From assembly GCA_965369605.1 (NCBI GenBank), contig CBDURE010000002.1, positions 72-64,071 of the forward strand: a stretch of DNA of 64,000 nt, given 5' to 3'. Position numbers and translations under genes: made by a program. The notes beneath the pieces were generated by a model. The model ran no database searches. It was not told the origin of the DNA and worked only from the letters and a program-made list of their open reading frames with translations. This DNA is from an uncultured bacterium. GTDB taxonomy: Bacteria > JAJVIF01 > JAGGVT01. Below, piece after piece: positions 1,429-33,237 of this stretch (its first letter is position 1; every line of letters begins with the position of its first letter).

Positions 1429-1433
1429 CTGCT

Positions 1434-1753
1434 TTATCCACTCCCGTTTACTCTCTTTCGCAATTCCTCCATGTGCGACATAGCTTTTTTTAACAAATCT
1501 ATCTCCATTGTCAACTGCCCAATCTTGCGCTCCAGCTTGGCAACCACTGCCTCATCCTTGTAACTCGAACCGTTTCTCGAAACGCATCTGACCCATGCTT
1601 CTCTTATAAAGCCAGCCATTTGTGAATGAGATTCGGGTGTATTTCATGTTCCCGACCTGCTCTCACCACAGGCTTGCCCATCTCAATCTCGTGCAGCAAA
1701 CCCAGTTTGAATTCCTTGCTGAATCTTCTTCTTTTCTTTCTCATTGGTGGCAT
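1434..1753 (-). pseudogene. IS3 orfA (HTH + leucine zipper), broken by an in-frame TAA and a frameshift
   Basis: ATG at 1753 gives MPPMRKKRRRFSKEFKLGLLHEIEMGKPVVRAGREHEIHPNLIHKWLAL, then TAA at 1604-1606. The same frame continues EKHGSDAFRE. The leucine-zipper part (NGSSYKDEAVVAKLERKIGQLTMEIDLLKKA) lies in another frame (track ORF 1434-1619). Confidence 0.6.
1485..1491 (-). promoter_or_regulatory. A7 slippery heptamer, candidate programmed -1 frameshift site orfA->orfB
   Basis: Minus-strand TTAAAAAAAGC sits inside the LLKKA codons near the end of orfA, just upstream of orfB. This is the canonical position and sequence type for IS3 elements. Confidence 0.5.
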
Positions 1754-1979
1754 CCTCTCCTTCATGATACCACCTTAACTCAGTGTCTCAAATCAGGGGT
1801 TCACTACACGCCCCCCTACTAAACAGTTTCCTTGAAAACTCACCATATCTGTCTATACTGCCATCGGATTAAAACGATGATTCCAATGTTGTGAAAAGTG
1901 GGATGTCGTCGAATATCCTACGATTTTGAATGGTGTAAATGTTATTGGAACATTTCAATTCGTTTTTTTAGATCTGGGA

Positions 1980-3188
1980 TTAACCAATACATACTTCTAC
2001 TGGAAATCCGAAACTAAGAAAGCGACCGGGGCTTGCGGTGTACTGATAAGCACCAGCATGATAAATTGCCACAAGATCACCGATATCAACAGTTGGTAAT
2101 TCAACACTATGCGCCAGAATATCGAAAGGGGTGCATAATGGACCGCATAGAGTCACAACTGATTGAGGGCGATTGCTGGACAAAACTCTTATTGGGGGAG
2201 GTCTAAAAGCACTTGTTCGCCAAATTCCTCCATAACAGTTAATGCCACCATCAAGAATCGCGTATCTAATGCCATAAAGCTCTTTCACATCACTAACACG
2301 TGTTAAAAACACCCCTCCTCCCCCAACAATATATCGTCCCGACTCAAACAAGTATGTCGAATTCGCGAAACGCTTCTCATATGTAGCAAATACCGAAGTT
2401 AGTTCTTTCCTGAGGTCCGAAATATCAATAGAGTGTTCTTCGGTATGAATCGGGCTGCCGAAGCCTCCACCCACATCCACATATTGAGGAGTCTTACCGA
2501 CTTGTTCACCGATATCGGAAAATTCAACTAGAGCACGCCTAAACTCCTCTCCGATGCGACGCGAATCCAATATATTAGTACCCTGAAAGCAATGTAGACC
2601 AATGCATATGACATTTCTTTTGTCGTTCTTAAGCAATGTCTGCCAGCAATTGATAATTTCTTGTTTCATCATCCCGAACTGTGTTGTGCCGGACATTGAT
2701 AGAGAACCGCGGCTTCTTTTCCCTGGATTAAGACGGAACATAATGGCCTGAGGCCAATTAAGAAACTTGGTAGCTTCGACTACTTTTGTTAATTCCCCTG
2801 GAGAATCGACAACAATTGCCTTGATGCCTGCTAAAATTGCTTCCTTGATGTCTTTGAGTAGTTTCCCTGGTGCGATATAATATATTTTTTGAGGATTAAC
2901 TCCGAGTTTAAGCAACATCCTAATTTCGCCTATAGAAGCAGCATCGAAGTGGCTTCCTATTGCATTAAGAGTCTCGATTATCCTATAATTAGGATTGGCC
3001 TTCACAGAGTAACACAATTTAGAACCATCAGGCAGAATCACTTTAAGTTCACGCCAACGTTTGGAAACCCATTTTAAATCGTAGACATAGCACGGTGTTC
3101 CATGTGTCTCAGCACATTGAAAAAGGTCTTTATCTCCGATTGAAAGATCACTTGGAATCAAATGTAGTGGGGAAAGGTTTTTATCCAT
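1980..3188 (-). CDS. PLP-dependent decarboxylase, Orn/DAP/Arg decarboxylase family (fold-type III)
   Basis: YSVKANPN (PLP-lysine motif), VDVGGGFGSP glycine loop, ESGRYIVGG, and LCGPLCTPFD (active-site Cys region as in diaminopimelate decarboxylases). Confidence 0.85.
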   Translation of the reverse strand: MDKNLSPLHLIPSDLSIGDKDLFQCAETHGTPCYVYDLKWVSKRWRELKVILPDGSKLCYSVKANPNYRIIETLNAIGSHFDAASIGEIRMLLKLGVNPQKIYYIAPGKLLKDIKEAILAGIKAIVVDSPGELTKVVEATKFLNWPQAIMFRLNPGKRSRGSLSMSGTTQFGMMKQEIINCWQTLLKNDKRNVICIGLHCFQGTNILDSRRIGEEFRRALVEFSDIGEQVGKTPQYVDVGGGFGSPIHTEEHSIDISDLRKELTSVFATYEKRFANSTYLFESGRYIVGGGGVFLTRVSDVKELYGIRYAILDGGINCYGGIWRTSAFRPPPIRVLSSNRPQSVVTLCGPLCTPFDILAHSVELPTVDIGDLVAIYHAGAYQYTASPGRFLSFGFPVEVCIG

Positions 3189-3195
3189 TTCTTTA

Positions 3196-4188
3196 CTATC
3201 CTTCTACTTCATCGGAAACCGAAATAATGGCGCACAGAGCATTCTCGTAGCGTTCCCAGTAATTCGAAAGACGATAAAGTCCTTCTTCTTCATACCATAC
3301 TTCAGTCTGAGTAGCATACAAGGTCGCGCAGCTTTTTAGTACATCAATGAGTGGTTGACGTAGATCACAGACTACGGAATCGGTTATTAGCGTAGCACTC
3401 TGATACTGCATAAGATGACGCACAAGTTCAAGAACCATTTGGAGGTTTATTGACATCTGCGATAATCCTAACCGCAAGGATATTTCAGATTTAACCTTGA
3501 GTTTAGGGGTGACGGCGCCCACAATACATTTCAGAAAAGCCGCTGGTCCATGTATTTCCCTTAAGCTTTGAACTAATTTTGCACCGGCAATAAGGGTGAG
3601 TTCCATAAGATGCTGAATTGGTCGTACCACACTCGCTCTTCGTAATGAAATGAGTAACGCGGTGTTTGTTGGAGTAACCCGATGAAATTCTAGAAGCTGT
3701 TCAATAGACTTAGTGTATGGAAGACCATCGGGATGTAAAAGGAGAAACTTATTTTCGCAAAATGCCACACACACTAAACAGTGATTGGGCTCACTCCGGT
3801 AAGCATGCGCAAATTCGTTTTCAAAAAGATTGGCACTAAAAGGTCCAATCAATACCGGACCTTCAACAAGTAAATCTTTCATCTTTTGAGAATACATTTT
3901 AGAGGTAAGTTTCGAATTATCTAGTATATACATATATGCATTATTATTTAACTCAAGAACACTTAATGCATGTTTTATTCCCTCTACAAAAGAATAATAC
4001 GGAGTAAGCCATTCATTCGGGTGGATCGTCACCCGATAATAGAAAGGACGACCCGTCAAACAATGATAAAGACAAAGAGGACCGCACGCATATCTATCGA
4101 TTAGCATTTGCAACCCAACACCAGTGTAGTCCACTTGTCGACCAGCATAGCTAGTACGAAAAAAACCGCATCTATCTAACCTGTTCAT
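3196..4188 (-). CDS. Hypothetical protein, paralogue of 11915-12886; possible BtrH_N/DUF4872-like Cys/His acyltransferase
   Basis: ATGA start/stop overlap with the upstream methyltransferase gene (4185-4188). Shares the block VEGPVLIGPFSANLF...NHCLVCVAFCENKFLLLHPDG with LDDGPVVLGPLNMGLL...DHYIVAVCYEPVLDEVTILDPER in the other copy. Family assignment rests on size and pattern only. Confidence 0.5.
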   Translation of the reverse strand: MNRLDRCGFFRTSYAGRQVDYTGVGLQMLIDRYACGPLCLYHCLTGRPFYYRVTIHPNEWLTPYYSFVEGIKHALSVLELNNNAYMYILDNSKLTSKMYSQKMKDLLVEGPVLIGPFSANLFENEFAHAYRSEPNHCLVCVAFCENKFLLLHPDGLPYTKSIEQLLEFHRVTPTNTALLISLRRASVVRPIQHLMELTLIAGAKLVQSLREIHGPAAFLKCIVGAVTPKLKVKSEISLRLGLSQMSINLQMVLELVRHLMQYQSATLITDSVVCDLRQPLIDVLKSCATLYATQTEVWYEEEGLYRLSNYWERYENALCAIISVSDEVEG

Positions 4189-4964
4189 AACTTACCCTTT
4201 CGTAACATCCAAATTTGGTTTTTTGATTCTTCTGTCCATTTTTGACCATCGAAATCACCATAGAGAGCCTCTATGATTAATCCACTTTCTGAAACAAGCT
4301 CATGCACTTGCGCGGGGGTTATCCAAGAAAAGTCAAACTGTATATAATGCTTTTTAATCAAGACCCCAGATGCATTGACATCTTCAATAGCGATTCTACA
4401 ATCCATCAATTGTTGTTTATATTTGTAAAGATAAACATCATATACATACCGAGTCACATCATCTTCACTCAACATTGTGCACATCAAACGAGGCTTCCGA
4501 TCATTCGATCTTGCCCACGACTCGTTAAAAACATAATGATCGAAGATGAAACGCCCCCCATCACATAAATTGCGACTTACCGAATAAAGCATGTTCAGCC
4601 GGTCATCACGAGTTAAAAGATGTCCAAATGTTCGAAACGGCAAGTAAATTAGGCTGGCAGGGCTTTCAAGGTCGAACTGTCGAATATCGCTTTGCACGAG
4701 GTTGATCCTATCCATTACTCCGAGCTCTAACGCTTTATCTCGGCAGGTCATGAGCATGCGATGTGATATGTCAAGCCCAATAATCTTCTTGCCTTCACTG
4801 GCAAGCTGAAGCGCAATTCGTCCGGTACCTACTCCAAGTTCGACTATGGTTCCACTCTCTTTCCGAGCCATATCTAAGTAAAATTCTGCTGTAGGCTCGG
4901 CAGAAGGGTCTGCTAATAACCAGGCATCGTAAATAAAAGCGAGGTCATCGTAAACGGTCGTCAT
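4185..4964 (-). CDS. Class I SAM-dependent methyltransferase
   Basis: Motif I IVELGVGTGRIALQLA, post-I GLDISHRML. I prefer the ATG at 4964 (MTTVYDD), which is preceded by GGAGG at 4976-4980, over the TTG at 4997 used by the track. Confidence 0.85.
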   Translation of the reverse strand: MTTVYDDLAFIYDAWLLADPSAEPTAEFYLDMARKESGTIVELGVGTGRIALQLASEGKKIIGLDISHRMLMTCRDKALELGVMDRINLVQSDIRQFDLESPASLIYLPFRTFGHLLTRDDRLNMLYSVSRNLCDGGRFIFDHYVFNESWARSNDRKPRLMCTMLSEDDVTRYVYDVYLYKYKQQLMDCRIAIEDVNASGVLIKKHYIQFDFSWITPAQVHELVSESGLIIEALYGDFDGQKWTEESKNQIWMLRKGKL

Positions 4965-5467
4965 AAGTCGATAAACCTCCAAATTTGTTTGGTTCAAATT
5001 CTACTTCGTTTCTGATCAGATCAGAGGTAAAAAGACACATTGCCATAGCTTCCAACAACGAATTCAGGCTTAACATCCCAATGCTTGCGGCTCAATCAAT
5101 ACATAGGTCAGTGGGAAGGCATCCACGAGTAAAAACCATAGTTGTGATTTATATCCCGCACTCACTTGCCCAATTACCTTTATAAGATATTCCCGAGATC
5201 AGGTCCCCATTAGCGTATTAGACCAGTCTCTGACTCTAAAGCTAACGTTTGAAACCGTCAATATCCTAGCACTTTTTTACGTACTTAATCTGGCATACAA
5301 AAACATATCGAGGAAAAACCGCGACCATAAAGTCGCTTTCTAATACTAGGCCTAACTCTGCATATGCCATTCCTGCTTCACACAATTTACGCTGAGAGAG
5401 TTCTTTCAATGGCATCGCACGCCTTACAACCTTGTAAACGTATGAAAATACGACTTTAAGAACCTGT

Positions 5468-6640
5468 TCAGCTATGAAATTCAACCTCGTTGAGAGCTGA
5501 TAGTTGTTTAGATATACGATTTCTGTTTTCCAGTACCCATTTTTCACCAAAGGCTTCTCGAGCAATCGCAAAATAAGTCTTTTGAAGTCGTTTGCGTAGA
5601 GGAGTAGGATCGTCGTATGAGAGTTCACGCTCCCAATCGTATCGACACTTGCAACGCATCGAAATAAGTCGTTGCACTTCTATGCAGCGAATTTGTGGGT
5701 TTATAGCGAATCTGACCAAGGAATCGTTCACCTTTTGGGCACAATTAGGACAAGTTGACGGAATAATATTTGCCTCATCGTAATGTGGATGCTGGATTTG
5801 ATCCATACCAGGATACCAAGATAGTTCAATGTTTTGAAACATGCTAGGCTTAAAACCAGCAAGGACATCGATAAGAGACCAAAGCGAAGCCTGGTTGTAG
5901 AATCCGTGGTGATTCAACCAGTGCAGTGTCGTATACGGTTTTATGTTTACTGGAAAAAGCACACACGTTGAAACACCATTTGCGAAACACCAGCGGACGG
6001 TATTCTGGGAGTCTGATACGATCTCGACAGCAGTTAGGAAAGGTAATCCAATCAGTACATTTGCCAAAACCTCTATGCCCTGCGATTGCAGTTGCCTTAT
6101 AACAGATGGAATCGCCGAAATATCTAATCCCTTGTTACAGCAAAACAGGCTGATTATGGGTGAAGCTGTCTCCACACCGACTTCGATCCTTATCCTATCA
6201 GCTGGAAACATCTCCAAGTCTTTCAGCACGGTCTCGTCAATTGTATCCGCCCTCGTCTCAATGATCAATATCGTATCCGGAAGCCGACTAAGGAGTTCTT
6301 CGATAATATAGATGCGGACCTCTCTCTCTAATTCGTGTATATCAAAAACACTTCCATTAGTGTTAAGTAGGAGTAGACGAGGAGGATCTTTTTCAAGTCG
6401 CTTCACCTCTTGAGTTAATGCGTTCCGCTGTTCATCAGGAGTGATTTCATCGCCAACCCAGTAGTCACATGGTACACAACCTCCATTCTTGATGGAGTGG
6501 TTACAGCCGTGAGTTCTAATCCATAAACGTGCAAAATCCTTCGAGTGACGAACTATAGAGGAGTTCATCAGCTTTGGGATAGGAGGACGTGAAGCACCTG
6601 CCATAAGACCGATTTGTTTTAAAAGGTAGTTAATTCTCAT
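5468..6640 (-). CDS. Radical-SAM-like enzyme with non-canonical cluster spacing (CX8CX2C)
   Basis: HGCNHSIKNGGCVPCDYW near the N-terminus, followed by TIM-barrel-like alternating strands (LLLLNTNGSVF, ILIIETRAD, RIEVGVETA). The start overlaps the uvrA-like stop by 11 nt. Confidence 0.55.
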   Translation of the reverse strand: MRINYLLKQIGLMAGASRPPIPKLMNSSIVRHSKDFARLWIRTHGCNHSIKNGGCVPCDYWVGDEITPDEQRNALTQEVKRLEKDPPRLLLLNTNGSVFDIHELEREVRIYIIEELLSRLPDTILIIETRADTIDETVLKDLEMFPADRIRIEVGVETASPIISLFCCNKGLDISAIPSVIRQLQSQGIEVLANVLIGLPFLTAVEIVSDSQNTVRWCFANGVSTCVLFPVNIKPYTTLHWLNHHGFYNQASLWSLIDVLAGFKPSMFQNIELSWYPGMDQIQHPHYDEANIIPSTCPNCAQKVNDSLVRFAINPQIRCIEVQRLISMRCKCRYDWERELSYDDPTPLRKRLQKTYFAIAREAFGEKWVLENRNRISKQLSALNEVEFHS

Positions 6641-8891
6641 GGCTGTTCTCCCTAAAATAATCAGCGAGGAATCGTCCTGTATATGAATCTTTGGATTTTG
6701 CGATTAGCTCCGGCGGTCCTTCTGTAATAATATAACCGCCAGCCTCACCCCCTTCTGGACCAAGATCTATCACCCAGTCTGCATTGGCTATAATATCAAG
6801 ATTATGCTCAACAATAATTACCGTATTGTTTTTCTTCACAAGTTTATGGAGCAGTTTCAACAAGCGATCTATATCTGCAATATGAAGCCCTGAAGTTGGT
6901 TCATCAAGAACATAAATTTCACCTTTTTTCCTTAGGCGGCTAGCCAGTTTTACACGTTGTGCCTCACCCCCTGAAAGGGTACTCAAAGGTTGCCCCAGTG
7001 TCAAATAGCCAAGTCCCACGGATTCAAGAATCCTCAATGCTGTAACAATAGAGCTATCGTTAAAATATTGGAGAGCCTCGTCGACAGTCAAATCCAAAAC
7101 ATCGGCTATTGTTTTTCCTTTATATTTAGACTGAAGGACATCAGAGATATACCTCTTTCCCTTGCAAACATGGCACAACTCTCGTATGTCCCCGAGAAAG
7201 TGCATATCAATAACTTTGTATCCTAACCCATCACATTCTTTGCACGCTCCCAGCCCATTAAATGTGAGTAAAGATGGGTCAACACCTGTCCCTTTCGAGA
7301 ACTCTTTTCTCATTGCATTAAAAGCTTTAATATAGGTTGCCACAATTGATCTAGCGTTTACACCCGCCGGACTCTGATCAACAACAGTAGCTTTTGGGTA
7401 CTTTTTGAGGAAAACATCTACAAAAGAACTTTTTCCACAACCAGAGACACCTGTCAGGCAGGTTAGCGCGTTTCGAGGGATCTGGACATTTATGTTTTTT
7501 AGATTATGTAGTGTCGCGTTTTCAACTAGCAAGAAGCTATCTGCACCCTTTAGACATTGAGTGTATCTGCGAACTCGTCTTCGTCCTGACAAATATTGTC
7601 CCGTAAGAGTATCCAGTCCTTGAATTTCTGTGGGACTTCCTTGACCTACAACTTCACCTCCTTTTCTTCCTGCTCCTGGACCGATATCAATTATGTAATC
7701 AGCTTTTTGCATTAAGGCCATATCATGTTCGACGACCAATACCGAATTACCCTTATCCTTAAGCTGCTTCAATATGTCAATCAGTTTTTCTGTATCTCTT
7801 GGATGCAGTCCCCTTGTTGGCTCATCCAGAACGTAAATAAGCCCAGTGAGAGAGCTGCCCAACTGCCTAGCCAATTTTAACCTCTGTGCTTCACCACTCG
7901 AAAGTGTTCCAATTGATCTATTGATAGTTAGGTAGCCTATGCCAGCATCAATCATATGGTGTAGCAGTTTGTTCATGTAAGGTAAAACAGTATCCGCGAC
8001 GTTTCCTCTTATATTTCCCAAGTAGTCATATAGCTCGACAATCTCCATATTTACTAGATCGATAATACTGCGATTATTCACCAGAACTGCACGCGCGCGT
8101 GCATTGATTCGAGCCCCTCTACAGGCTTGGCAAGGTCTTTTTAATAAGAATTGTTCGTCATATGAAGTTCCAGTTAATCCCCTGCTATCATTTTGTCTCT
8201 TTAAAAGACGAGACACTACCCCCTCATATGAAAAAGATTGTACATATCCAGGTTGCTCATTTTCAGCTCTTATAGGCTCACTATAAAATAGTTTGTGCTT
8301 TTCATATTCCGAAAAGTCTTTTAATTTTTTATCCATATTAAAATAGCGGGTTGCCAAAATAATATTCCAATACCGACTATTCACTTTCCAGGTTTTGTGT
8401 TTGATTGCATTCTGATTAAGAGTTTTATTAAAATCAAAAAGTGCATCAAAATCCGGAACAATCTCAAAGCCAAGCCCTTTGCACGTTTCGCAAGCTCCAG
8501 AAGGGCGATTGAAAGAAAAGTCTGAGGCGTTTTGAGCCGGTGTTCCCAATCGTGAATAAAGCAGTCTCAAATAAGTATAGATTTCTGTGACAGTACCCAC
8601 AGTGGATCTCGGATTTCGCCCGAGTGGGTGCTGATCGACTACAATGCAAGGAGAGAGCCCTTCGATAGCATCAACATCCGCTTTTGAAACTCTTGGAATA
8701 GACCTTCTTGCGTATGAACTTAGAGAATCGAGAAATTCACGCTGAGCCTCAGAAAATATAGTGTCAAAAGCGAGTGATGATTTTCCGGAGCCTGAAACAC
8801 CCGTTATAATAACAAACTGGTTTTTAGGTATAGATAATGAAATATTTTTTAGATTGTTTTGTCTTGCGCCAAAAATGTTAAGCTTATTCAT
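6630..8891 (-). CDS. UvrA-like ABC ATPase lacking the UvrB-binding domain (class II UvrA / DrrC-like)
   Basis: [33 protein letters not shown], two LSGGEAQR signatures, and zinc modules [39 protein letters not shown] runs straight into [13 protein letters not shown], with no intervening ~140-aa UvrB-binding insert. Likely start is the ATG at 8891 ([17 protein letters not shown]); the track uses GTG at 8939. Confidence 0.9.
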
Positions 8892-9018
8892 TACTCTCCT
8901 AGAAAAATGACAACTGTGATTATTATTTAATATTTCCACAGTGCTCTGCTGAGAACATCAGAGAACACTGCATATGATTTTCTATTCCGGTCTGATGGTA
9001 GCGTAAATGTCAATTGCA

Positions 9019-10008
9019 TTATAGTGCCCCCGAATATGGTTGTAAAGAAACCTCATCTGGTTTTCGTGGGGGCAGTCCGAGGAGCTGTTTTATTGACGCC
9101 TTATAATGTTTCCCGCTATCAGCCGATACAACTACAACCGAACTCCTCGTTCTTCTACAAAGTAGCGAGGCAACGGCCAAATTGTGTCCTGTGGTCAACC
9201 CGACATTGAATCCCTCCAGTTCCTCGAATCGTCTGCATTCCAAAGCAGCCAAGTAGTCCGAAACCTGTGCGAAGTAATCGATGCAACTCCCATATCGACG
9301 GAGTAGTTCCGATGCCCCCAACATGCCAGCACCTGCGGCAACATATGGGAGACTTCTCCCCCCGAATGATGTTGAGCCAAGAGGCTCTACGCCCACAACA
9401 TTTATATCCGGATTTACCTGTTTTAAGAATTTACCGACGCCGCATATAGATCCAGCAGATCCTACCGAGATTACGATCCATCGTACGGTTTCCTTTGTTT
9501 GTTCCCATATCTCTGGGCCTGTCGTTTCATAATGGGCTCGAAAATTCGCAGGATTTGCATACTGATTAATCCAAACGTAGTCAGGTTGCTCCCCAAAGCG
9601 GGAAGCCGCTGCAATCCTTGCTGAGCGGAAATCTGGATAATCACCTTTCGGGATAAATTGCACGTTTACACCTTCTTCGAGCAGCTCCCTTTGTTTGCTC
9701 ACAGGCGTCGTTTTGTCAGACAAACAAAGAAAAGAGACACCAAAGTGTCCAGATAACTTGTGGAGAGCAATTGCAAGATTGCCAGACGATGATTCTACAA
9801 TGCAGATTTGTTGACCTGTGACGGTATATTTTTGGACAGCATCATGTAACATATAAAAAGCACTTCTTGCCTTGATGCTACGCAACCGATTCTCCCCTTC
9901 ACATTTAACAAACATATTTCCCCTTGGACAGTATCTGTTCACAGGTATTAATGGGGAATCAGTGAGACCAAATCTTTGACATTCTTCATGTAATAGATTA
10001 TTGCCCAT
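9019..10008 (-). CDS. PLP-dependent beta-replacement enzyme (cysteine synthase / CBS / SbnA-like, fold-type II)
   Basis: RSIKARSAFYML (PLP lysine), ESSSGNLAIALH, GVGSAGSICGVGKFLK. In-frame ATG at 10008 (MGNNLLHEE) overlaps the upstream stop by 11 nt. The track start at 10104 would overlap it by 107 nt. Confidence 0.8.
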   Translation of the reverse strand: MGNNLLHEECQRFGLTDSPLIPVNRYCPRGNMFVKCEGENRLRSIKARSAFYMLHDAVQKYTVTGQQICIVESSSGNLAIALHKLSGHFGVSFLCLSDKTTPVSKQRELLEEGVNVQFIPKGDYPDFRSARIAAASRFGEQPDYVWINQYANPANFRAHYETTGPEIWEQTKETVRWIVISVGSAGSICGVGKFLKQVNPDINVVGVEPLGSTSFGGRSLPYVAAGAGMLGASELLRRYGSCIDYFAQVSDYLAALECRRFEELEGFNVGLTTGHNLAVASLLCRRTRSSVVVVSADSGKHYKASIKQLLGLPPRKPDEVSLQPYSGAL

Positions 10009-10966
10009 TGCATCTCCTAATAATGCTGGCTGCACTGCAGAAGTCACAGTCGTGATATAGGATATCCTGGTGGAGCATATGAGAAATATAGGATGTAAAG
10101 TCATTAGGCCACTGATCTGAAAGTATAGTCTTAAACGGTCTCCATGGACATAATCCTAAGCTGCCATTCCAATTGAGTGTAATGGAGGGTATCCTGCAAA
10201 AGACTATACTAAGCCCCTTTTGCTCCAAAATAGGGGACAATCGTTCAAGAAGAACGATGCGTCTTTTGGAGAGGTTCAGACTCATGCGATTAATCCCGTC
10301 GGGAATGGTGTCTGTAGCGAACTTTTGTACAGCTGACTCAAAGGATTTATCATCTGGAACAAGCCAACGATTTTCAGGTAATGAGCCTCTTCCAACAGTT
10401 TGGAATTCAAGAAACTGTAACTCGTTCGCACCGGTAGCCGCAAATGTGGCGATCATCTCTTTCATGTACTGAATATTGCCTGAGTGTAGAGTTGTCCGGA
10501 TAACCACCTTAGCGTTAGCACGTACTCCATGTTCTATACAGTGTAATACGTCGATTAGCCTATTAGCGCGAATCAATCCGTGAATCTTTTCCGTATGTCC
10601 TTCAGCGGATATGCGAAGGCGGAATGGTCCGAATTGTCCTGTCATCCGTATCTCGTCAAACGGAAAAGGAATGGAACCGTTAGTAGTCATTGTTACGCGT
10701 GGCAGAATTTCTTCGCGAAGTCCATTTATAATTGTCTTGAATTGGGGGTGCAAAAGGATCTCGCCACCTTCAATCTCAAATTCTGCATGCGGTGTTACAT
10801 CTTCTATTTCACTCAATGCACGCAAGAGAATGTCGGCAGGTAAATCATATTTGCTTGTCGAATCAGATGATGTATCAATAAAGCAATGAGTGCAATTTAA
10901 ATTACAGCGAGATGTAGCAAAAACATGTACGGAAAGAGGATGTTTGGCAACGGTACCGTCAAGCAT
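9998..10966 (-). CDS. Radical SAM enzyme with Cys-rich (SPASM/twitch-like) C-terminus
   Basis: Canonical CX3CX2C in ATSRCNLNCTHCF. C-terminal cysteines in GLCPWRP...HDCDFCSAASIIRRC. Confidence 0.85.
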   Translation of the reverse strand: MLDGTVAKHPLSVHVFATSRCNLNCTHCFIDTSSDSTSKYDLPADILLRALSEIEDVTPHAEFEIEGGEILLHPQFKTIINGLREEILPRVTMTTNGSIPFPFDEIRMTGQFGPFRLRISAEGHTEKIHGLIRANRLIDVLHCIEHGVRANAKVVIRTTLHSGNIQYMKEMIATFAATGANELQFLEFQTVGRGSLPENRWLVPDDKSFESAVQKFATDTIPDGINRMSLNLSKRRIVLLERLSPILEQKGLSIVFCRIPSITLNWNGSLGLCPWRPFKTILSDQWPNDFTSYISHMLHQDILYHDCDFCSAASIIRRCNGQ

Positions 10967-11912
10967 TGCTTTCCCCTCCTCGTTGCAGAATAGTAACTCC
11001 CCTGCTTCCCCCGAATCCAGGGTTAATCAAGATAGATACATCACCGCACGCGATCTTGCCCTCCGCACATGCTCTGATGTAATGACAGAAAGAATCATTA
11101 GAATTAAGATGCCCTGTATCTGGAAGGTAATCCATGAGCAACTTACCGCTGGGGAACCTGAGGACATCAGCGATGATCTGCCCCATTTTTTTGTAAGGGG
11201 TGTGTGGCACTATCCAATCAACGTCTGATAGACAAATACTGGATTGAGATAGGCAAAGCTCAATGGCATTTCGAATGTAGGACGGATTAGCCGCACGAAA
11301 TCTGGCTATAGATTCAGTGGTCGAGTCCTCACCCAGAGTGGCAATGACGTGTGTCTCTGACAGTGTGCCAAGGATTCTATGCGTAACGTTCACAGCACCA
11401 ACACATCCAACAACAATACTGTCCCCCATGGCTGAGCCAAAAAAGAACCGACTCTCCGCAGAAGGAGCTACATCTATCCCAACAAGAACAACGACAGTGC
11501 TCTTGTTCATCTGCTCAAGATAACGAAGCGCTAACCAGACACCGTAATGAAAAATAGAACACGGTTGGCCACTGATAGGAATTATTGGAGTTCGTTCGAA
11601 GGATGTGCCATGCACACAACGTTCGAGGATAGAAGGAAACCGCAAGATCATTCCAGGTATAGAGTGAAGCAAGAGAACAACCTTAGCGTGAGTAGAAATA
11701 CAAGGATGGTTAGCAGCGAGATTTTTAAGGGTTGCTCGAACAAGAACCCCAGGATCAGTTTGCTCACATACTGGAATCCGCGACAAACCGTTTTCAACTA
11801 GTAGAGACATGCTATCATTACTCAATCCGACCTCTTTCGCGAGCTTAATGACGGGCTGTTCATTCAGTCTCACATTTTCAAGGTATTTGAAACCAATCTC
11901 AGAAATTTTCAT
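10959..11912 (-). CDS. KAS III (FabH)-like thiolase-fold condensing enzyme / acyltransferase, divergent
   Basis: Candidate nucleophile in ISGQPCSIFHYG. VPHTPYKKMGQ aligns with the FabH HQAN region, GHLNSNDS with the GNTSAAS region, and the C-terminal FGGSRGVTIL is FabH-like. ATG at 11912 sits 2 nt after the upstream TAA; the track uses TTG at 11927. Confidence 0.65.
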   Translation of the reverse strand: MKISEIGFKYLENVRLNEQPVIKLAKEVGLSNDSMSLLVENGLSRIPVCEQTDPGVLVRATLKNLAANHPCISTHAKVVLLLHSIPGMILRFPSILERCVHGTSFERTPIIPISGQPCSIFHYGVWLALRYLEQMNKSTVVVLVGIDVAPSAESRFFFGSAMGDSIVVGCVGAVNVTHRILGTLSETHVIATLGEDSTTESIARFRAANPSYIRNAIELCLSQSSICLSDVDWIVPHTPYKKMGQIIADVLRFPSGKLLMDYLPDTGHLNSNDSFCHYIRACAEGKIACGDVSILINPGFGGSRGVTILQRGGESNA

Positions 11913-11914
11913 TG

Positions 11915-12886
11915 TTAAGTGATCCAATTCAGGAAGTTTCCAAGTTCCAATTCAGCATTAACGACATCAATAATCTCACTAGGTATTAGTTCGTTTTCAG
12001 TGCTAAGTCGATAAATAAGCTTTCGACATGACAATATTGCCTGTTCCGCCCACTGGAATGACTGTCTGGAACCGTCGCTTCTACAACCGAGTATTTCCTT
12101 GATCAAAGAACAGCAACAAATAATACGACGAATACGTGTTTCCAGGCAGAATGTCAAACCACTCCAAAGTGACCGATTCTTCCTTTTATCCAGTGTTGTG
12201 TTACAAAAGATTTGCAGGACAGGAAGTGTTTCGATACGCAAGCGATTTAGATTCCGTTGCACATTGTGGACAACTGTCTTCGAACCTGTCTGCCAGTCGA
12301 GGACTGGTGGCACATCCTTCACTTGACGCATTGTGTATGGACCTCTTCCTTCTAGCAGATCCTCAGCTCCCCAGGCTGGAATCAGGTTCTGGAGCTCCGT
12401 ATGAACGAGTCCAACCCGTTCGGGATCTAGAATTGTCACTTCATCCAAAACGGGTTCGTAACATACTGCGACAATGTAGTGGTCCAACCCTATGAATTGT
12501 TGCCTGTTTCTTAGGTAGGGTAGAAGTCCCATATTTAAAGGACCTAAGACAACCGGCCCATCATCGAGCAATCTTATCAGTTCTCCAATGGCTTTATTGT
12601 GGTCGTTTTGCGTTCGAAAACACCGGCGCACGGTTTTGATTCCTAATGCGGAACAGGCTAGGTCAAGACCGATATCTGGGTCAACGATGGAGTTGAGTAA
12701 ACGATTCGGGTCTGCCGGGACATGAGCAATACCAAAAGGCACAGTCGTGCAGGCCTCGAACAAAGCAGGTACAGTTCTGTCTATAAGGGCACTTGAGCTT
12801 GATAACAAAGCCTGTGTGTGGCAACCTACAACCCGAAGCCCGGAATTTAGAAATGGCAGAATATTATGTTCAATGCATATCTTCAC
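11915..12886 (-). CDS. Hypothetical protein, paralogue of 3196-4188; possible BtrH_N/DUF4872-like Cys/His acyltransferase
   Basis: GTGA start/stop overlap with the adenylating-enzyme gene (12883-12886). N-terminal GCHTQALL cysteine and DHYIVAVCY histidine block. Paralogy to 3196-4188 is visible by eye. Confidence 0.5.
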   Translation of the reverse strand: MKICIEHNILPFLNSGLRVVGCHTQALLSSSSALIDRTVPALFEACTTVPFGIAHVPADPNRLLNSIVDPDIGLDLACSALGIKTVRRCFRTQNDHNKAIGELIRLLDDGPVVLGPLNMGLLPYLRNRQQFIGLDHYIVAVCYEPVLDEVTILDPERVGLVHTELQNLIPAWGAEDLLEGRGPYTMRQVKDVPPVLDWQTGSKTVVHNVQRNLNRLRIETLPVLQIFCNTTLDKRKNRSLWSGLTFCLETRIRRIICCCSLIKEILGCRSDGSRQSFQWAEQAILSCRKLIYRLSTENELIPSEIIDVVNAELELGNFLNWIT

Positions 12887-14442
12887 ATTTCTACCAACCT
12901 ATAGGCTATATTGCTGAGCTGTTTACGGTCGATTTTTCCATTTTGCGTAACTGGAAAGATATCTCTGGTAATGTGGACATGTTTGGGGGGGAGAGGCCCT
13001 GGAAGAAGATTTCGGGCTGCGTCTGATACGGTGCGAGCATTGATTTGTCTACCGTGTTTGGGACGAACAAAAGCGAATAGCGCGTCACCTCCCAATGAAT
13101 CCTTGACACCCACAATCACAACTTGCTGTATACCAGGCAACGTTGATAGGCTCCGTTCCAAGGTAATCGGGCTGACTCGTTGATCTCGCACTTTAAGGAA
13201 ACTTTGCCCCCGTCCTTCGAAGTAGAGAAACTCGTCGAAGGTTATTCTAAAATAATCCCCTGTGAACAACCATGTGTCACGGGTCTCAGAATCGTATTTG
13301 AAACGATTGGATGTTGCTGCGGGATTGTTTAAGTATCCTCGCATTACATGCGGACCACGCACAACCAGTTCGCCGACCTCATTAACGGGAAGACGTTTCC
13401 CTTTGTCGTCAACTACAGTGACCATGGTTCCGGGCAGCGGTTTGCCGACAGATTCCTCGTGACCGATAAAATTGTGGGGGAGTAAAATACTTACCCTCTT
13501 ACATTCTGTCAGACCGTACATGGGGAAAACCGAGCATGATGGAAGATATCTCTTGAGCGTCAATATAGTCTCGAGTGAAAAAACATCTCCCGTGGAACAG
13601 ACATACCGAAGTTGATCGAAGCGACTCCGACTCAAAAGATTCGATTCAACCAACATGTTAAACAAAGATGGTACTCCGGGGAGTGCCGTTACTCCATATT
13701 TACCCATCCAATAAGGGATGGCCATAGGCATAGAGAAATCCGGTGAGACCACCAATGTCGCTCCGCTGTGCAAGGCCAAGAAAAGCTGATATAATCCATA
13801 GTCGAACGAGAAGGGAAGACCGCAGAGAAGAACGTCTTCCGGTGCATTGCCGAGAATGGAATTGATCGCGTTTACCGCAAAAAGGATTTGTCTATGCGGG
13901 CAAATAACCCCTCGTGGCTCGGAGGTCGATCCCGAAGTATAGATAATCAAAGCTATATCTTCAGACGCTTTAGCTGAATCATTTAGTAGAGGTGTTTGTT
14001 CACTTGTGGAAGAGAGACCTTTTATTTCCTCTTGAATGTACTGTAGAGCGACAGCATCGCAACCAGCTTCAACGTAGGGTGTACTAGAATTCTCATTGAT
14101 AAGATCATCATCCACCAAGCCCAATAGCGGATGGCAGTCCTTGAGCACAAATGATAGTGATTGTGAATCCATCTTGAGTCCAAGGGGAACCATCGTTTTT
14201 CCAGCAATGAAACCTCCGAACAGTGCGCACGCATAGGAATAGCTGTTTTTCGCTTGAAGCGACACACACCCCGGTCTATCACCCGTCCTCATCAAGAGCC
14301 ACCGGGCAAAAAGCATTGAATCAGCGAGCCACATTGCGAAGGAAACACAACGATCATCAGAGACTGAAATCAAACCGGGTTTCTCCCCATAACGTGCGGA
14401 AGCATTGATAAGTAGATCTTCGATGCGCTCAGTATTCCTCAT
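12883..14442 (-). CDS. Adenylate-forming enzyme (acyl/aminoacyl-AMP ligase, ANL superfamily)
   Basis: Core motifs IIYTSGSTSEPRGV (A3), YGLTE (A5), FTGDYF (A7), PVTQNGKIDRKQL (A10). Confidence 0.9.
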   Translation of the reverse strand: MRNTERIEDLLINASARYGEKPGLISVSDDRCVSFAMWLADSMLFARWLLMRTGDRPGCVSLQAKNSYSYACALFGGFIAGKTMVPLGLKMDSQSLSFVLKDCHPLLGLVDDDLINENSSTPYVEAGCDAVALQYIQEEIKGLSSTSEQTPLLNDSAKASEDIALIIYTSGSTSEPRGVICPHRQILFAVNAINSILGNAPEDVLLCGLPFSFDYGLYQLFLALHSGATLVVSPDFSMPMAIPYWMGKYGVTALPGVPSLFNMLVESNLLSRSRFDQLRYVCSTGDVFSLETILTLKRYLPSCSVFPMYGLTECKRVSILLPHNFIGHEESVGKPLPGTMVTVVDDKGKRLPVNEVGELVVRGPHVMRGYLNNPAATSNRFKYDSETRDTWLFTGDYFRITFDEFLYFEGRGQSFLKVRDQRVSPITLERSLSTLPGIQQVVIVGVKDSLGGDALFAFVRPKHGRQINARTVSDAARNLLPGPLPPKHVHITRDIFPVTQNGKIDRKQLSNIAYRLVEM

Positions 14443-15355
14443 GAATCCCGGACCTCCAAGCGGAGCGCGGTTCCAATTTCACATTGTAAGGTTTGCATTT
14501 TTGATTTTCAGCAGCCAACATCAGCTTGCGAAATCTCTGAATAGTTTTAATTGAGAGTCCTGTATGGCTTCTTAATTCTTCGTCCCCCATGCGGAACCCC
14601 TTAATGCCAAATAGAACCAAGTCCACACACTCTGTGGTAAGTTCTGCCTTTATAGTATCCACCTCACGCTCATCATCATCCGAAAAGGATCTCTCCTGCT
14701 GAATCGGTGCTTCGTTAACCAGCCAATATGCGAGATCTTCCAAGTCGGTTTCGCCTTTCCAAAATCCAGCTGAAGCGGGTTGATGAATCACAGAAGATCG
14801 AGTATTTAATAGGTGGGCAACCTGCCGTACTTGGGTTTTGTATAAATGAGAGATAGGTTTCAGATGAGCAATGCCATCACCGAATGGCAGGAAAAATCCC
14901 AACTCGTACTCTGTGCGGTTGGATGTTCCAATAACGACGAATCCACGATCCTGATAGGTTGAAAGAACTGGGGTTCGTAATGAGCACTTCGCTCGGGAAG
15001 GATCCAGAAGACCGTCGGGAAGAAAATTTTGTTGCGGATCAGCTAACGCTAGTCGTCGGATAAACTCCGAAGGGAAATTCCTCAAATCTATCTCATGCAA
15101 ACTGACCGATAGATCATAGGCAAGTTCGCGAGCATACTTAATGTGTGTTTCCTCCATTTCATCTTGGAGTATGACAAACAGCTTCAAATTTTGGGGATCA
15201 ATAGCCAATGCTAGCAAACGCGCCACAACGTCTGAATCAAGTCCTCCAGACACCCCGACAACGGCTTTTTCACTTTTAATGCTTCTCCTCAAGAACCTGA
15301 TGATTCTAACCTTCTCAGCCCTTGCGTCTTTATCAGTAAAAGCAACGCATATCAT
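14429..15355 (-). CDS. PP-loop ATP pyrophosphatase, NAD synthetase (NadE)-like
   Basis: VVGVSGGLDSDVVARLLA (SGGxDS PP-loop). Stop overlaps the next gene's start by 14 nt. Confidence 0.75.
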   Translation of the reverse strand: MICVAFTDKDARAEKVRIIRFLRRSIKSEKAVVGVSGGLDSDVVARLLALAIDPQNLKLFVILQDEMEETHIKYARELAYDLSVSLHEIDLRNFPSEFIRRLALADPQQNFLPDGLLDPSRAKCSLRTPVLSTYQDRGFVVIGTSNRTEYELGFFLPFGDGIAHLKPISHLYKTQVRQVAHLLNTRSSVIHQPASAGFWKGETDLEDLAYWLVNEAPIQQERSFSDDDEREVDTIKAELTTECVDLVLFGIKGFRMGDEELRSHTGLSIKTIQRFRKLMLAAENQKCKPYNVKLEPRSAWRSGIHEEY

Positions 15356-15416
15356 TGGTTATTTACTCCTTCAAGCACGAATTATTTCAATTTCATAAGC
15401 AACATCTATAAAGTTG

Positions 15417-16151
15417 TTACGTTACTAACAGCAATCCTTTTCCCTTCATTTCAGTGGATGCCAGAGTTGCGGGTAACTTCTTAAGCAGATTAAAGCAAGA
15501 GTCACAACAAATAGTTTTCAACTGTTTGCTTACGCTAGACTGGATGTTTAATTTTTCCAGAGCTGTAGGAGACACATTCACATCTCTCGTGTTTAGAAGC
15601 CATGTAGAGAACGGCATTATAGGCACCGAATGGAAAGCAAGGTCATTATCGTTTTCGATTTTTAACAGGCTGTAAAGGTCAGTTTTAGAATTGACAGGCG
15701 TAGCAATAACAAGCAAAGTATCAGAATCTCTCGCTGGTTGTTGCAATGACAATCTAACGACCCGGAAATTATCGATAGTCCCATGTTTCTTGACTTCTCC
15801 GAGTGCCGATTTTGAAGAGACACTCGATGTGGCAGAAGCAACAATAATTACCGATGCAGTACTACCTATGAGGTGATAGTGTGCTATAAACAATGCATTT
15901 AGAAAAGGGTGTATACCATATCCTTCAATGGAAACAGTCAATGCTGTTGGAATACCCAAGAGGTCTGCGATCTCGTAGGCGGACGCTGGCTTCCCCGCAT
16001 CGTATTCGTTTTTACATTCAATCAGCACTACATTATTGTGCATCTCTAGGGCTTCGTGTTGAATCGAAGCGAGGAAGGGTAGAGATGAAACAAAAGTAGG
16101 GCTAGCACTCCTTCGTTGTCGATTGCACTTTGTAATCTCCATCCAAATCAT
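15417..16151 (-). CDS. Hypothetical protein (244 aa)
   Basis: ATGA overlap with the ACP stop (16148-16151) argues for real translation. No motif recognised. Confidence 0.55.
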   Translation of the reverse strand: MIWMEITKCNRQRRSASPTFVSSLPFLASIQHEALEMHNNVVLIECKNEYDAGKPASAYEIADLLGIPTALTVSIEGYGIHPFLNALFIAHYHLIGSTASVIIVASATSSVSSKSALGEVKKHGTIDNFRVVRLSLQQPARDSDTLLVIATPVNSKTDLYSLLKIENDNDLAFHSVPIMPFSTWLLNTRDVNVSPTALEKLNIQSSVSKQLKTICCDSCFNLLKKLPATLASTEMKGKGLLLVT

Positions 16152-16423
16152 AATTGCTCCTCACTATCAATGCCAGCCTTGATTAAAAAAGTCACCAAGC
16201 TTCCTGCTGTGTTAAATATAGAAATAAAATCCGTTTGAACGGGATCAAAGCGAAACCCAAACTCATCCTCAATCGCAATTTGCAAGTTGACAAAAGCCAA
16301 TGAATCAAACCCTAAATCGTTTGAAAGGGAATCGCTTAGGCTAATCTCCTGGTTGTTCGGCAGCCAATCTGCAATTGCACCTAGAACCTGATAAACTCTT
16401 TGTTCAATGGTCATCTTATACAT
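16148..16423 (-). CDS. Acyl/peptidyl carrier protein
   Basis: 91 aa with DLGFDSLAFVNLQIAIEDEFG (DSL phosphopantetheine attachment serine). AGGAG lies 5 nt upstream of the ATG. Confidence 0.9.
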   Translation of the reverse strand: MYKMTIEQRVYQVLGAIADWLPNNQEISLSDSLSNDLGFDSLAFVNLQIAIEDEFGFRFDPVQTDFISIFNTAGSLVTFLIKAGIDSEEQL

Positions 16424-16551
16424 TCTACTCCTGGGGTTAATAAACCGTAAACCATACGACCTCTTTCAGCCAGATTCCTGTTTCAAGGCAACCAATAAGA
16501 ATCTGTAGAAATTAGTGTTCGAAGCTGTTCTGGGAAAATTAGTACGAGACA

Positions 16552-16990: not shown

Positions 16991-17852
16991 CGCTACAGTT
17001 TCTTACCACCTGTTCACAGATTTGTTTGCCAAGAATAAGATTATGAGACATTTCATCATTATAAACCAGAATAAATAAGGATACAAGATAGATTATATCA
17101 GGAAAAGCCCCTTAGTCAATGGGATTCATTTCCGATGTCTTTGAATTTAGAAGCATCTATTAAACTATATTTGCATCCTTGTGTAAACATGAATAGTTGA
17201 ATTTATTCAACTTGTATTGAGTTATTCTCCTCGGGAAGGAAATTGGTATGTGGTCTTAGTATTAAGCGTAAAAAATACACTGATTAAAACCATTGAACTC
17301 CACCATTTCAAAAATTCCCGTACTCATTCCTCAAGGGGTTTACTCAAATGGCTTCAAGTGAGTAAAAAAAGAAAAATTCACTGCTTTGTTAAAAAAATAC
17401 AGTAAAGAATTGCAGGATTCAAGTTTAAACAGGAGCAACCGTTTTAAAATAGAAAAAAACGCTGATTCGCTCAATGTTGAATGTTTACATGTTATTACAT
17501 ATTTCAGTTGGAGAAAGTACTTTTAATCACAATTGCATACACTTCATCAAATTAAATTATTTGACGTCAGTCAAAATGAAATTCTACTTGAAAGAGTGTC
17601 ACTTGCATTCAATAGTAGCATGAAACTTGGTGATTTATTTGATGTGTTCTATCTTAGTAAAGGAAACCTCTGAAAGAGGTTGCGAACTTCCTGTTCAACC
17701 TCACCACCTATCATGTATAAACCTGTGCAAACTCTGATAATTCATGGCTAAACTAAAGTTCAGGTTCGTGAACTTTACACTAAGCATCCTGTGGACATTC
17801 TCGATAGAAGATATAGACAGGTTTCGAATTTTCATAAGGCATCGCATCTATA

Positions 17853-20855: not shown

Positions 20856-20910
20856 GTTTTATCATTCCAATATGTATATTATAGATTAATTCATCTCTAA
20901 GTAGTAATCT

Positions 20911-22619: not shown

Positions 22620-22621
22620 TA

Positions 22622-33211: not shown

Positions 33212-33237
33212 CTTCCATTTCCCCAAAACGGGCTGAT

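Follow-up and report, generated by a model that had tools for sequence, protein, structure and literature searches.

A candidate thiotemplated biosynthetic cluster without megasynthases, partly eroded on a genomic island of an uncultured bacterium

The DNA analyzed here (the window) is a stretch of 64,000 nucleotides (nt) from an uncultured bacterium (GenBank assembly GCA_965369605.1, contig CBDURE010000002.1, positions 72 to 64,071 of the forward strand). The subject of the analysis is a run of 13 uninterrupted open reading frames (ORFs) on its minus strand, all in the same orientation, that occupies positions 1980-16423 and includes the gene for a free-standing acyl carrier protein (ACP) (Table 1). 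An earlier note, made from the letters of the sequence alone, had described this run as a translationally coupled operon of 13 co-oriented genes with seven start/stop overlaps. The 13 intact minus-strand ORFs are there, as are all seven overlaps (16148-16151, 14429-14442, 12883-12886, 10959-10966, 9998-10008, 6630-6640 and 4185-4188); that at 9998-10008 depends on the pyridoxal phosphate (PLP) gene being started at ATG 10008, which gives 329 amino acids (aa), the length of the orthologues. Translational coupling is supported at these seven overlaps and not at four gapped junctions, namely that between the gene for the 244-aa protein and the NadE-like gene (15417/15355, 61 nt), that between the PLP gene and the UvrA-like gene (79-127 nt), 5468/4964 (ca. 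500 nt) and 3196/3188 (7 nt). The start of the methyltransferase gene was placed at ATG 4964, which is preceded by GGAGG and fits the 259-aa orthologues. Scans with Pfam and NCBIfam bore out the gene content that had been listed, except for a protein called unknown and a pair called Cys/His proteins, both of which are taken up below; three operon proteins gave no match or a sub-threshold match only. The 1.4-kb leader (16300-17900) matched no Rfam family, and no tRNAs were found within the window.

Table 1. Features of the cluster and its borders, in the order of transcription. L003, L018 and L019 are related loci introduced in the text; X1, Y1 and Y2 are genes that relatives carry.
Feature	Position	Strand	Evidence or remark
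Best sigma-70-like promoter match, TTGACT-16-TATAAT, TG extended	17092..17119	-	upstream of operon; consensus match only
Free-standing ACP, 91 aa, DSL phosphopantetheine site	16148..16423	-	PF00550 at 1.5e-10
Degenerate thiolase-fold protein, 244 aa	15417..16151	-	hhalign to the ketoacyl-ACP synthase III (KAS III)-like family
NadE-like PP-loop ATP pyrophosphatase, SGGLDS	14429..15355	-	PF02540 at 3e-30
VinN-like stand-alone ANL adenylating enzyme (AMP-binding)	12883..14442	-	best PDB match VinN 3wvn, 5e-67
CtaG/BtrH/CcbD-type papain-like transacylase	11915..12886	-	sub-threshold BtrH_N match; Cys22-His136-Asp154
KAS III-like (DpsC-like) enzyme	10959..11927	-	PF08541, C-terminal part only; likely start ATG 11912
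Radical S-adenosylmethionine (SAM) enzyme 1, CxxxCxxC and three conserved C-terminal Cys	9998..10966	-	PF04055 at 1e-12
SbnA/CysK-like PLP beta-replacement enzyme (PALP)	9019..10008	-	PF00291 at 4e-50
150-nt replacement segment	8894..9043	-	unrelated DNA in place of Y1 and Y2 (ca. 1.6 kb); alignment to L019 and L018
Class II UvrA-like ABC ATPase	6630..8939	-	likely start ATG 8891, giving 753 aa
RaSEA-like radical SAM enzyme 2	5468..6640	-	TIGR01210 at 4e-32, below cut-off
X1 pseudogene remnant, ATP-grasp ligase	5027..5477	-	tblastn and blastn against L003, three-frame translation
SAM-dependent methyltransferase	4185..4964	-	best family daptide-type N-methyltransferase, below cut-off
Cys-less transacylase paralogue	3196..4188	-	pairwise E 0.002 to the transacylase
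BtrK-like PLP decarboxylase	1980..3188	-	PF02784 and PF00278; best PDB matches BtrK 7ru7 and 2j66, 5e-47
Cluster 3' breakpoint (ca. 1948), then IS3-family element	550..1948	-	homology to L003 ends; rve and HTH_21 matches

The conserved gene set and order recurs in at least 10 independent loci, which are numbered here. The same set was found in Maridesulfovibrio hydrothermalis AM13 (L001; FO203522.1, ca. 283-304 kb), in metagenome contigs (L003/L004, L006, L007 and L018/L019), in a Deferribacteres metagenome-assembled genome (MAG; L008), in reshuffled order in Lachnospiraceae and Dorea MAGs (L009, L012, L014), and in further metagenome contigs (L020, L021, L025-L029), one of them from the human gut. 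Ratios of nonsynonymous to synonymous substitution rates (dN/dS) between window genes and their nearest relatives were 0.08-0.26 for the ten genes tested. Because of this recurring synteny and these ratios, the genes are taken as real, and they are under purifying selection. The family is rare. Among 5.8 billion protein clusters, there were 17 homologues of radical SAM enzyme 2, 10 of the transacylase and 7 of its Cys-less paralogue; a profile search of 1.84 billion representatives returned 45 proteins at E<=1e-30, a megablast search with the entire cluster matched neither E. coli genomes nor PLSDB plasmids, and looking up the exact sequence of the radical SAM protein of the window returned no record. 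No characterized cluster that matches was found, nor did literature searches yield a published description, and the earlier statement that the genes fit no recognized pathway stands, the syntenic loci being uncharacterized clusters only. A core recurs across the rearranged loci: the ACP, the ANL enzyme, the decarboxylase, both papain-like proteins, and the KAS III-like enzyme with its degenerate partner. This minimal seven-gene module is also present in a high-GC contig (L027; JGI Ga0307374_10002327, 1-20510), where its neighbors are a DrrAB-type ABC exporter (DrrA), luciferase-like and FAD monooxygenases, and a GyrI-like/Cass2 protein, a setting typical of secondary metabolism. On balance we lean, by a small measure, toward reading the window genes as a reduced copy of a rare, mobile cluster that makes a small molecule on a carrier protein independently of nonribosomal peptide synthetases (NRPS) and polyketide synthases (PKS), by the steps set out below.

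The carrier-protein module gives this reading its starting point. In the ACP, D40 and S41 are kept in the orthologues. The ANL enzyme is closest to VinN, the enzyme that charges the ACP VinL with 3-methyl-aspartate or aspartate after activating it as a beta-amino acid. In HMMER alignments, FSFDYGLY of the window protein lies opposite SWDFGLY of VinN, and YGLTECKRVSI opposite YGQTECKRISI; the first pair of segments covers VinN D230 and F231, and the second K330 and R331. The motifs FDYGLY and TECKR are invariant in 11/11 orthologues. Structural work on VinN has described D230, which binds the amino group, as well as F231, and K330/R331 on a shortened beta13-beta14 loop (PMC11253843). From homology and these specificity residues, the first step of the pathway is predicted to be the activation of L-aspartate or 3-methyl-aspartate at the side-chain carboxylate and its loading onto the ACP. 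The decarboxylase, a member of the Orn/DAP/Arg family with the PLP lysine and the KANPN motif, is closer to BtrK, the L-glutamyl-[BtrI ACP] decarboxylase (5e-47), than to the best LysA (6e-39). Since the ACP and the ANL enzyme co-occur with it in every locus, we infer that it acts on an ACP-tethered aminodicarboxylate, not on a free amino acid. In the second step, again predicted by homology, it would remove the alpha-carboxylate of the aspartyl or 3-methyl-aspartyl unit on the carrier and leave a beta-alanyl-type thioester. The same logic of tethering aspartate and decarboxylating it has been demonstrated for closthioamide (CtaD/E/F) and butirosin (PMC7183216). The L027 decarboxylase forms a fusion protein with a class I/II aminotransferase.

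The same two enzymes bear on a rival explanation. Their best NCBIfam models were TIGR03098 (exosortase A-associated acyl-CoA ligase; 3e-85 for the ANL enzyme) and TIGR03099 (4e-77 for the decarboxylase), and the cluster might accordingly decorate an envelope polymer or make a cofactor, like the uncharacterized trio of ACP, ligase and decarboxylase that NCBIfam links to exosortase A systems, the UvrA-like gene being incidental or a general repair paralogue. All identified carriers of the family are MAGs or isolates of anaerobic lineages, and the loci encode several radical SAM enzymes, so an anaerobe-specific cofactor is conceivable; the absence of an exporter and of a regulator would fit as well. 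Both scores were nevertheless far under their cut-offs (286.7 bits against 592 for the ANL enzyme and 260 against 478 for the decarboxylase), and the loci examined contain no exosortase, PEP-CTERM, glycosyltransferase or polysaccharide genes; membership of the exosortase A trio was rejected on the scores and the missing exosortase genes. An extremely rare and patchy family (7-17 homologues per marker in the protein-cluster search), found here on a mobile island absent from a close relative, is also hard to reconcile with such a role, which we judge very improbable.

The acyl-transfer step of the preferred small-molecule pathway was approached through the two proteins that had been noted as paralogous Cys/His proteins. 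They are paralogues, and the nucleophile Cys is present in one of them only. Profile searches of PDB sequences with either of them, or with the 244-aa protein, returned noise only, and structure prediction and profile-profile comparison were therefore needed for these three proteins. For the transacylase, an AlphaFold2 model made with nine homologues (predicted local distance difference test score, pLDDT, 82; predicted template-modeling score, pTM, 0.80) showed a bipartite fold: an N-terminal papain-like alpha/beta domain, with a strand core at residues 84-191, and a helical C-terminal domain of four long helices. Its top PDB matches in Foldseek were exclusively AziU3/U2, CtaG (TM 0.61-0.64) and CcbD, at E values of 1e-6 to 1e-4; CcbD has been crystallized with a peptidyl carrier protein domain. 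Sequence identity to CtaG in the structural alignment was ca. 11-12%. All three residues of the triad are conserved among the closest orthologues, and their spacing (114/18) resembles that of CtaG (117/16), for which the triad Cys11/His128/Asp144 is proven (PMC12865890). Natural fusions of an N-terminal ANL domain to a C-terminal CtaG/BtrH1-like domain were found in three proteins of 825-864 aa (P0057, P0062 and P0065); as Rosetta-stone proteins, they support a coupling of the corresponding genes of the window, which are adjacent and overlap by 4 nt. In the third step of the predicted pathway, the papain-like Cys would take the acyl group from the ACP thioester as an acyl-enzyme and pass it to an amine, and in doing so the enzyme may pair with its Cys-less paralogue.

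In alignments, this paralogue keeps a His136/Asp154-like pair and lacks the nucleophile Cys. Its model had a pLDDT of 59 and was used solely for fold-family assignment, yet its top five Foldseek matches were again CtaG, AziU3/U2 and CcbD. Most loci in which the two regions can be viewed encode both papain-like proteins. AziU3/U2 is a complex of two homologous chains, and for that reason a catalytic/non-catalytic pair is proposed here as well, the Cys-less protein being a partner subunit or a catalyst that forms no acyl-enzyme.

A second pair with one degenerate member appears to be formed by the KAS III-like enzyme and the 244-aa protein. The nearest PDB match of the former was DpsC. It has an invariant Cys123 (in GQPC) and an invariant His242, and its TGHLNSND aligns with TGHLGGGD of DpsC. 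The 244-aa protein, which the earlier note had left as unknown and which had no match in Pfam, NCBIfam or PDB sequence searches, is, judging by hhalign, probably a paralogue of the KAS III-like protein with a degenerate thiolase fold (E 4.6e-5, probability 69%). In that alignment, EGxG of the 244-aa family lies opposite GQPC, so that a Gly occupies the Cys position while the flanking motifs stay in register. Other loci have longer homologues of the 244-aa protein (304-314 aa), accompanied by the KAS III-like gene in most of the loci in which this region is in view; of all versions, that of the window is the shortest and the most degenerate. It looks like a non-catalytic thiolase-fold partner of the KAS III-like enzyme. 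PqsBC and the ketosynthase/chain-length factor heterodimers offer an analogy for such a pair, and by analogy with PqsBC-type heterodimers the two proteins might prime or extend the chain as the fourth step.

The remaining enzymes would, speculatively, act in a fifth step, in which the SbnA-like enzyme, the two kinds of radical SAM enzyme, the NadE-like enzyme and the N-methyltransferase might make or tailor a second building block. The best PDB match of the NadE-like protein was an NH3-dependent NAD synthetase (2e18, 4e-23). It scored 109 bits against the TIGR00552 domain model (cut-off 63.65) and fell short of all full-length equivalogs (for example, 131 against a cut-off of 255). A housekeeping NadE role is disfavored because of the biosynthetic context and because a duplicate copy exists in L020. 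The default prediction from its sequence is an ATP- and NH3-dependent amidation of a carboxylate. An Fe-S or thioamide synthetase of the CtaC/TtuA type was considered for this PP-loop enzyme and ruled out, there being no conserved Cys cluster. In L020 (6553-8437), two tandem NadE-like paralogues are 53% and 42% identical to the window protein, which suggests two separate amidation-type steps in some variants. Radical SAM enzyme 1 showed generic similarity only, to MoaA, SPASM and viperin-like proteins. Genuine RaSEA was rejected for radical SAM enzyme 2 (111.6 bits against a cut-off of 212), no homologue of ArcS or TGT being present in any locus. For RaSEA itself, the substrate is a tRNA-borne lysine adduct and the product an amidine (PMC11298593). 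Likewise, membership of the SbnA pathway was rejected for the PLP beta-replacement enzyme, which scored 192.9 bits against the TIGR03945 cut-off of 349.95; no locus has an SbnB/ornithine-cyclodeaminase-like gene. One idea is that the tailoring enzymes install or unmask an amine, amide or amidine nitrogen, and the SbnA-like and RaSEA-like enzymes together could form an NAD-independent counterpart of SbnA/SbnB.

The window copy is partly eroded, a point that was missed in the earlier note. Relative to its nearest relatives it has lost five or six genes. DNA alignment to L003, a relative whose proteins are 75-90% identical to those of the window, showed that the gap at 4965-5467 is no plain spacer but a pseudogene with deletion scars. 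Three segments align (window 5699-5132 with L003 2494-3072, 5081-5030 with 3323-3374, and 5026-4801 with 6390-6616), and it follows from the breaks between them that the window lost ca. 0.2 kb and ca. 3.0 kb. The X1 remnant is the N-terminal third of a gene of ca. 456 aa; its start codon is gone, and it contains several stops and frameshifts. The best PDB match of the X1 profile was the ATP-grasp ligase BesA (8yi6, L-propargylglycine--L-glutamate ligase; 1e-11). The 3.0-kb deletion also removed X2 and X3, paralogues of radical SAM enzyme 2 at ca. 30% identity, and the window alone, among the loci seen, has just one RaSEA-like gene, relatives carrying two to four. Within the X1 remnant, upstream of the last three genes, lies a terminator-like hairpin (5336-5321). 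At a second site, in L019 (the nearest relative) and M. hydrothermalis, Y1 and Y2 sit between the PLP gene and the UvrA-like gene, where the window has the 150-nt replacement segment. Y1 gave weak matches to nucleoside 2-deoxyribosyltransferase and TIR models and Y2 to the P-loop of 5-hydroxymethyldeoxyuridine DNA kinase (E 1e-3 to 4e-6 for both genes; Y1-Y2 region, L001 6233-7762 and L019 5554-7111). These matches may point to a building block derived from a nucleotide or to self-protection at the nucleotide level. At the 3' end of the cluster, only the first 11 codons survive of the gene that comes next in L003 (weak GNAT match). The 150-nt replacement segment holds a promoter-like site close to consensus (TTTACA-17-TATAAT; 9018-9046, minus strand), which immediately precedes the UvrA-like gene and could give that gene its own transcription start.

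These losses raise the question of whether the window copy, taken alone, is a non-functional relic whose intact ORFs have simply not yet decayed. The damage to X1 (a lost start, several stops and frameshifts) is not recent; X2 and X3 went with the 3.0-kb deletion, 150 nt stand where Y1 and Y2 were, the 3' gene is truncated beside a dead IS3 element, no other locus was seen with one RaSEA-like gene, and the hairpin precedes the last three genes. Set against this, the 13 ORFs that remain have all kept their full length and their catalytic motifs, and the three genes downstream of the deletion have dN/dS values of 0.10-0.26. Other natural variants are also reduced, L007 lacking X1-X3 at that site and L006 lacking Y1-Y2, so a reduced set can be a working variant and is not necessarily dead. 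We regard a relic as possible and rather unlikely; this reading overlaps with the preferred one of the family, and its probability is not to be added to that of the other alternatives. The window copy is best described as a reduced, possibly inactive derivative, whose product would be a simpler congener if it has one at all.

The UvrA-like gene is the part of the cluster that may point to the target of the product. In the window protein and two orthologues, an alignment gap spans E. coli UvrA residues ca. 121-263, that is, the UvrB-binding domain and zinc module, and leaves two ABC ATPase modules without a UvrB-binding domain, the architecture of class II UvrA. Ecm16 (7sh1) was the only protein that aligned with the window protein in one end-to-end stretch. 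Ecm16, which protects its producer against echinomycin, is missing that domain too (PMC10192343), and uvrA-like genes have been used as markers of DNA-intercalator clusters (PMC10413001). Ten independent loci carry the gene (the window, L001, L003, L018, L006, L007, L008, L025, L026 and L029), and the linkage persists despite varied gene orders and, in L029, opposite orientation. Because of the Ecm16/DrrC precedents and this persistent linkage, a DNA-targeting product is proposed: the class II UvrA-like ATPase may shield the producer's DNA, as the sixth element of the scheme, and the product may be DNA-binding or DNA-damaging.

The same gene lends itself to a different explanation, namely that the cluster serves nucleic-acid hypermodification or phage defense. 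An aminoacyl group built on the ACP would then be put on DNA or RNA bases with the UvrA-like protein scanning, and the RaSEA-like enzymes, the PLP decarboxylase and the methyltransferase would process the adduct on the polymer. RaSEA, the nearest characterized relative of radical SAM enzyme 2, does work on a tRNA-bound base (PMC11298593), and the UvrA-like gene, persistently linked, is the most conserved gene of the cluster. Its product matches the PADLOC model mad3 at 1e-82, and also mad8. In L007, a RarA/MgsA-like gene precedes the UvrA-like gene, with nothing after it; radical SAM enzyme 1 is weakly MoaA- and viperin-like, the Y1 and Y2 matches in M. hydrothermalis and L019 point in the same direction, the operon has no exporter, and the window copy adjoins restriction-modification (R-M) systems on a mobile island. 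Against these points, the core has no base-exchanging, base-flipping, glycosylase, TET/JBP, thymidylate-synthase-like or nuclease component. The Y1/Y2 matches are weak and the genes dispensable. The seven-gene core also occurs in the secondary-metabolite setting of L027 with its DrrA-type exporter, the VinN-, BtrK-, CtaG- and DpsC-like enzymes are nearest to enzymes of small-molecule pathways, and class II UvrAs are documented as self-resistance proteins (PMC10192343, PMC10413001). In the PADLOC scan of the core proteins, nothing matched beyond the UvrA-like protein (mad3, mad8) and radical SAM enzyme 1 (weak pVip); a MADS defense system was rejected as an identity for the cluster, no other mad component being present. 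We consider the nucleic-acid explanation improbable, and slightly more so its specific form, a carrier-protein-dependent hypermodification or defense system of an undescribed kind in which the UvrA-like protein is the targeting subunit and the RaSEA-like enzymes trim the adduct.

The earlier note had placed the operon between a dead IS3 element and a defense island and had considered it probably horizontally acquired. The IS3 element is indeed dead, orfA being broken by a stop and a frameshift, with orfB intact. To the right of the cluster (higher coordinates) come hsdR, a DUF4411 gene, an M78 peptidase gene, hsdS and hsdM, and farther on an SMC-like ATPase gene, a Replic_Relax gene and, beyond three genes for large proteins, a T4 coupling protein gene. 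A contig from a related MAG (L023) corresponds to window 44285-54994 at 84-92% DNA identity and has unrelated, housekeeping-type genes to the left of that segment. From this break in homology at ca. 44285 it follows that the cluster is part of an island of 44 kb or more, whose left border is beyond the start of the window. The right island boundary falls at ca. 44260-44285, where L023 homology begins inside the 5' end of an HhH-GPD glycosylase gene, the N-terminus of the glycosylase being 23 aa longer in the window (260 aa compared with 237 aa in L023). Horizontal acquisition of the cluster is supported by this related genome without the island, by the conjugation and relaxase genes, and by the patchy spread of the family across phyla.

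Several further features of the island and its flank were observed. The type I R-M operon (17853-26013) has its DUF4411 and M78/IrrE-like peptidase genes between hsdR and hsdS. Between hsdR and the cluster, the minus strand at 16722-16870 has a translation that includes RDQRNIEQLRKLGWWGLLIRECQNRIDYF, which resembles the C-terminal motif of E. coli Vsr, a very-short-patch repair endonuclease; the stretch is an apparent truncated remnant. The SMC/AAA_21-like ATPase (994 aa; 26017-29001) is encoded in DNA of 30% GC, the Replic_Relax gene lies at 29352-30311, and the three large proteins (912, 885 and 809 aa; 30488-38512) comprise one with a beta-propeller repeat and two without a Pfam match. The ATPase and these three proteins could be uncharacterized defense or mobile-element cargo. 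In the conserved flank outside the island, a gene for a type IIG Eco57I-like R-M enzyme (45049-47718) is followed by one (47827-51612) whose 1261-aa product has several Ser/Thr kinase domains in repetition and, at the C-terminus, TPR repeats.

A number of observations weigh against the small-molecule interpretation or parts of it. The UvrA-like protein had higher bit scores against canonical UvrAs than against Ecm16, it also matches the mad3 model, and its gene was not seen in the Lachnospiraceae-type loci L009 and L014, of which the views are incomplete. No exporter, regulator or phosphopantetheinyl transferase was found in the window operon or its closest relatives. The hhalign link of the 244-aa protein is moderate, the Cys-less paralogue was modeled with low confidence, and the roles of the KAS III pair and of the NadE-like, PLP beta-replacement and radical SAM enzymes are loosely constrained. 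Finally, the pathway may be inactive in this organism as a result of the deletion and of the terminator-like hairpin ahead of the last three genes. The central proposal of the earlier note, an amino-acyl unit built on a free-standing carrier, decarboxylated there and passed on by a BtrH-type transferase, is backed by the BtrK, VinN and CtaG-fold matches. The cluster is assigned to the recently recognized NRPS-independent thiotemplated class that includes butirosin, closthioamide and the petrobactin-type ligases.

The cluster was compared with several known systems. With the pathway of the butirosin AHBA side chain (carrier protein BtrI, ATP-grasp BtrJ, decarboxylase BtrK, transferase BtrH) it shares the free-standing carrier, the BtrK-like tethered decarboxylase, the BtrH_N/CtaG-fold Cys-His-Asp transferase and, in intact relatives, an ATP-grasp ligase (compare BtrJ). 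It differs in loading by a VinN-like ANL enzyme, not only by ATP-grasp, and in having no aminoglycoside genes; the window and its close relatives also lack the BtrO/BtrV monooxygenase and BtrG, while the window cluster adds the KAS III pair, the NadE-like, SbnA-like and radical SAM enzymes, and the class II UvrA. The closthioamide pathway (CtaD, E, F, G, C, I) likewise consists of stand-alone enzymes in an anaerobe, in which aspartate is loaded and decarboxylated to beta-alanine (PMC7183216) and a papain-like Cys-His-Asp ligase takes a thioester to an amine (PMC12865890). Both clusters also have an ANL enzyme and an enzyme of the adenine-nucleotide alpha-hydrolase superfamily (PP-loop). By contrast, the window cluster has one carrier protein, and its NadE-like PP-loop enzyme has no Fe-S cysteines, so that thioamidation is not predicted; equivalents of CtaA, CtaB, CtaK and CtaJ were not noted in the Pfam scans. 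The vicenistatin proteins VinN/VinL/VinO share with the window the closest ANL enzyme, its binding residues and the logic of ACP-tethered decarboxylation, but the window cluster has no type I PKS and no VinM/VinK/VinJ for protection, transfer and deprotection, and it would use papain-like transfer in place of an acyltransferase. Fluvirucin FlvN/L/O is likewise a beta-amino-acid starter system of a macrolactam.

For the papain-like paralogues, the top structural matches of both were AziU3/U2, the azinomycin aziridine-forming heterocomplex, and CcbD, the celesticetin amide synthase. AziU3 and AziU2 are also two divergent paralogues in one cluster; sequence identities are 10-15%, and the window cluster has neither an amino-group carrier protein nor sulfotransferase genes. 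The UvrA-like protein has in common with Ecm16, DrrC and UvrA2 the missing UvrB-binding domain and the location of its gene inside a biosynthetic cluster, as well as the end-to-end alignment with Ecm16; the hosts of the window family are Gram-negative and Firmicute anaerobes, not actinomycetes, and protection is predicted. RaSEA, the radical SAM enzyme of archaeosine synthesis and partner of ArcS, is the best family for radical SAM enzyme 2 and its paralogues, and in RaSEA an amino acid is the nitrogen donor; the present genes form a bacterial, multi-paralogue cluster without ArcS, TGT or 7-deazaguanine genes.

Pathways like those of butirosin and closthioamide were discovered recently, and standard genome-mining rules largely miss them. 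The present family combines their carrier logic with a tailoring set that is unprecedented (RaSEA-like radical SAM enzymes, one to four in number, with an amidating enzyme that resembles NadE and a PLP enzyme that resembles SbnA) and with two catalytic/degenerate pairs, KAS III and papain-like, in one cluster family. The organisms identified (a sulfate reducer, Deferribacteres and Lachnospiraceae MAGs) belong to anaerobic lineages, and the cultured M. hydrothermalis AM13 and the other intact relatives are a better experimental entry point than the window copy, which shows the cluster being whittled down after transfer. If it is true that a class II UvrA marks a DNA-targeting product, the family would make a new chemotype of DNA binder or genotoxin from anaerobic communities.

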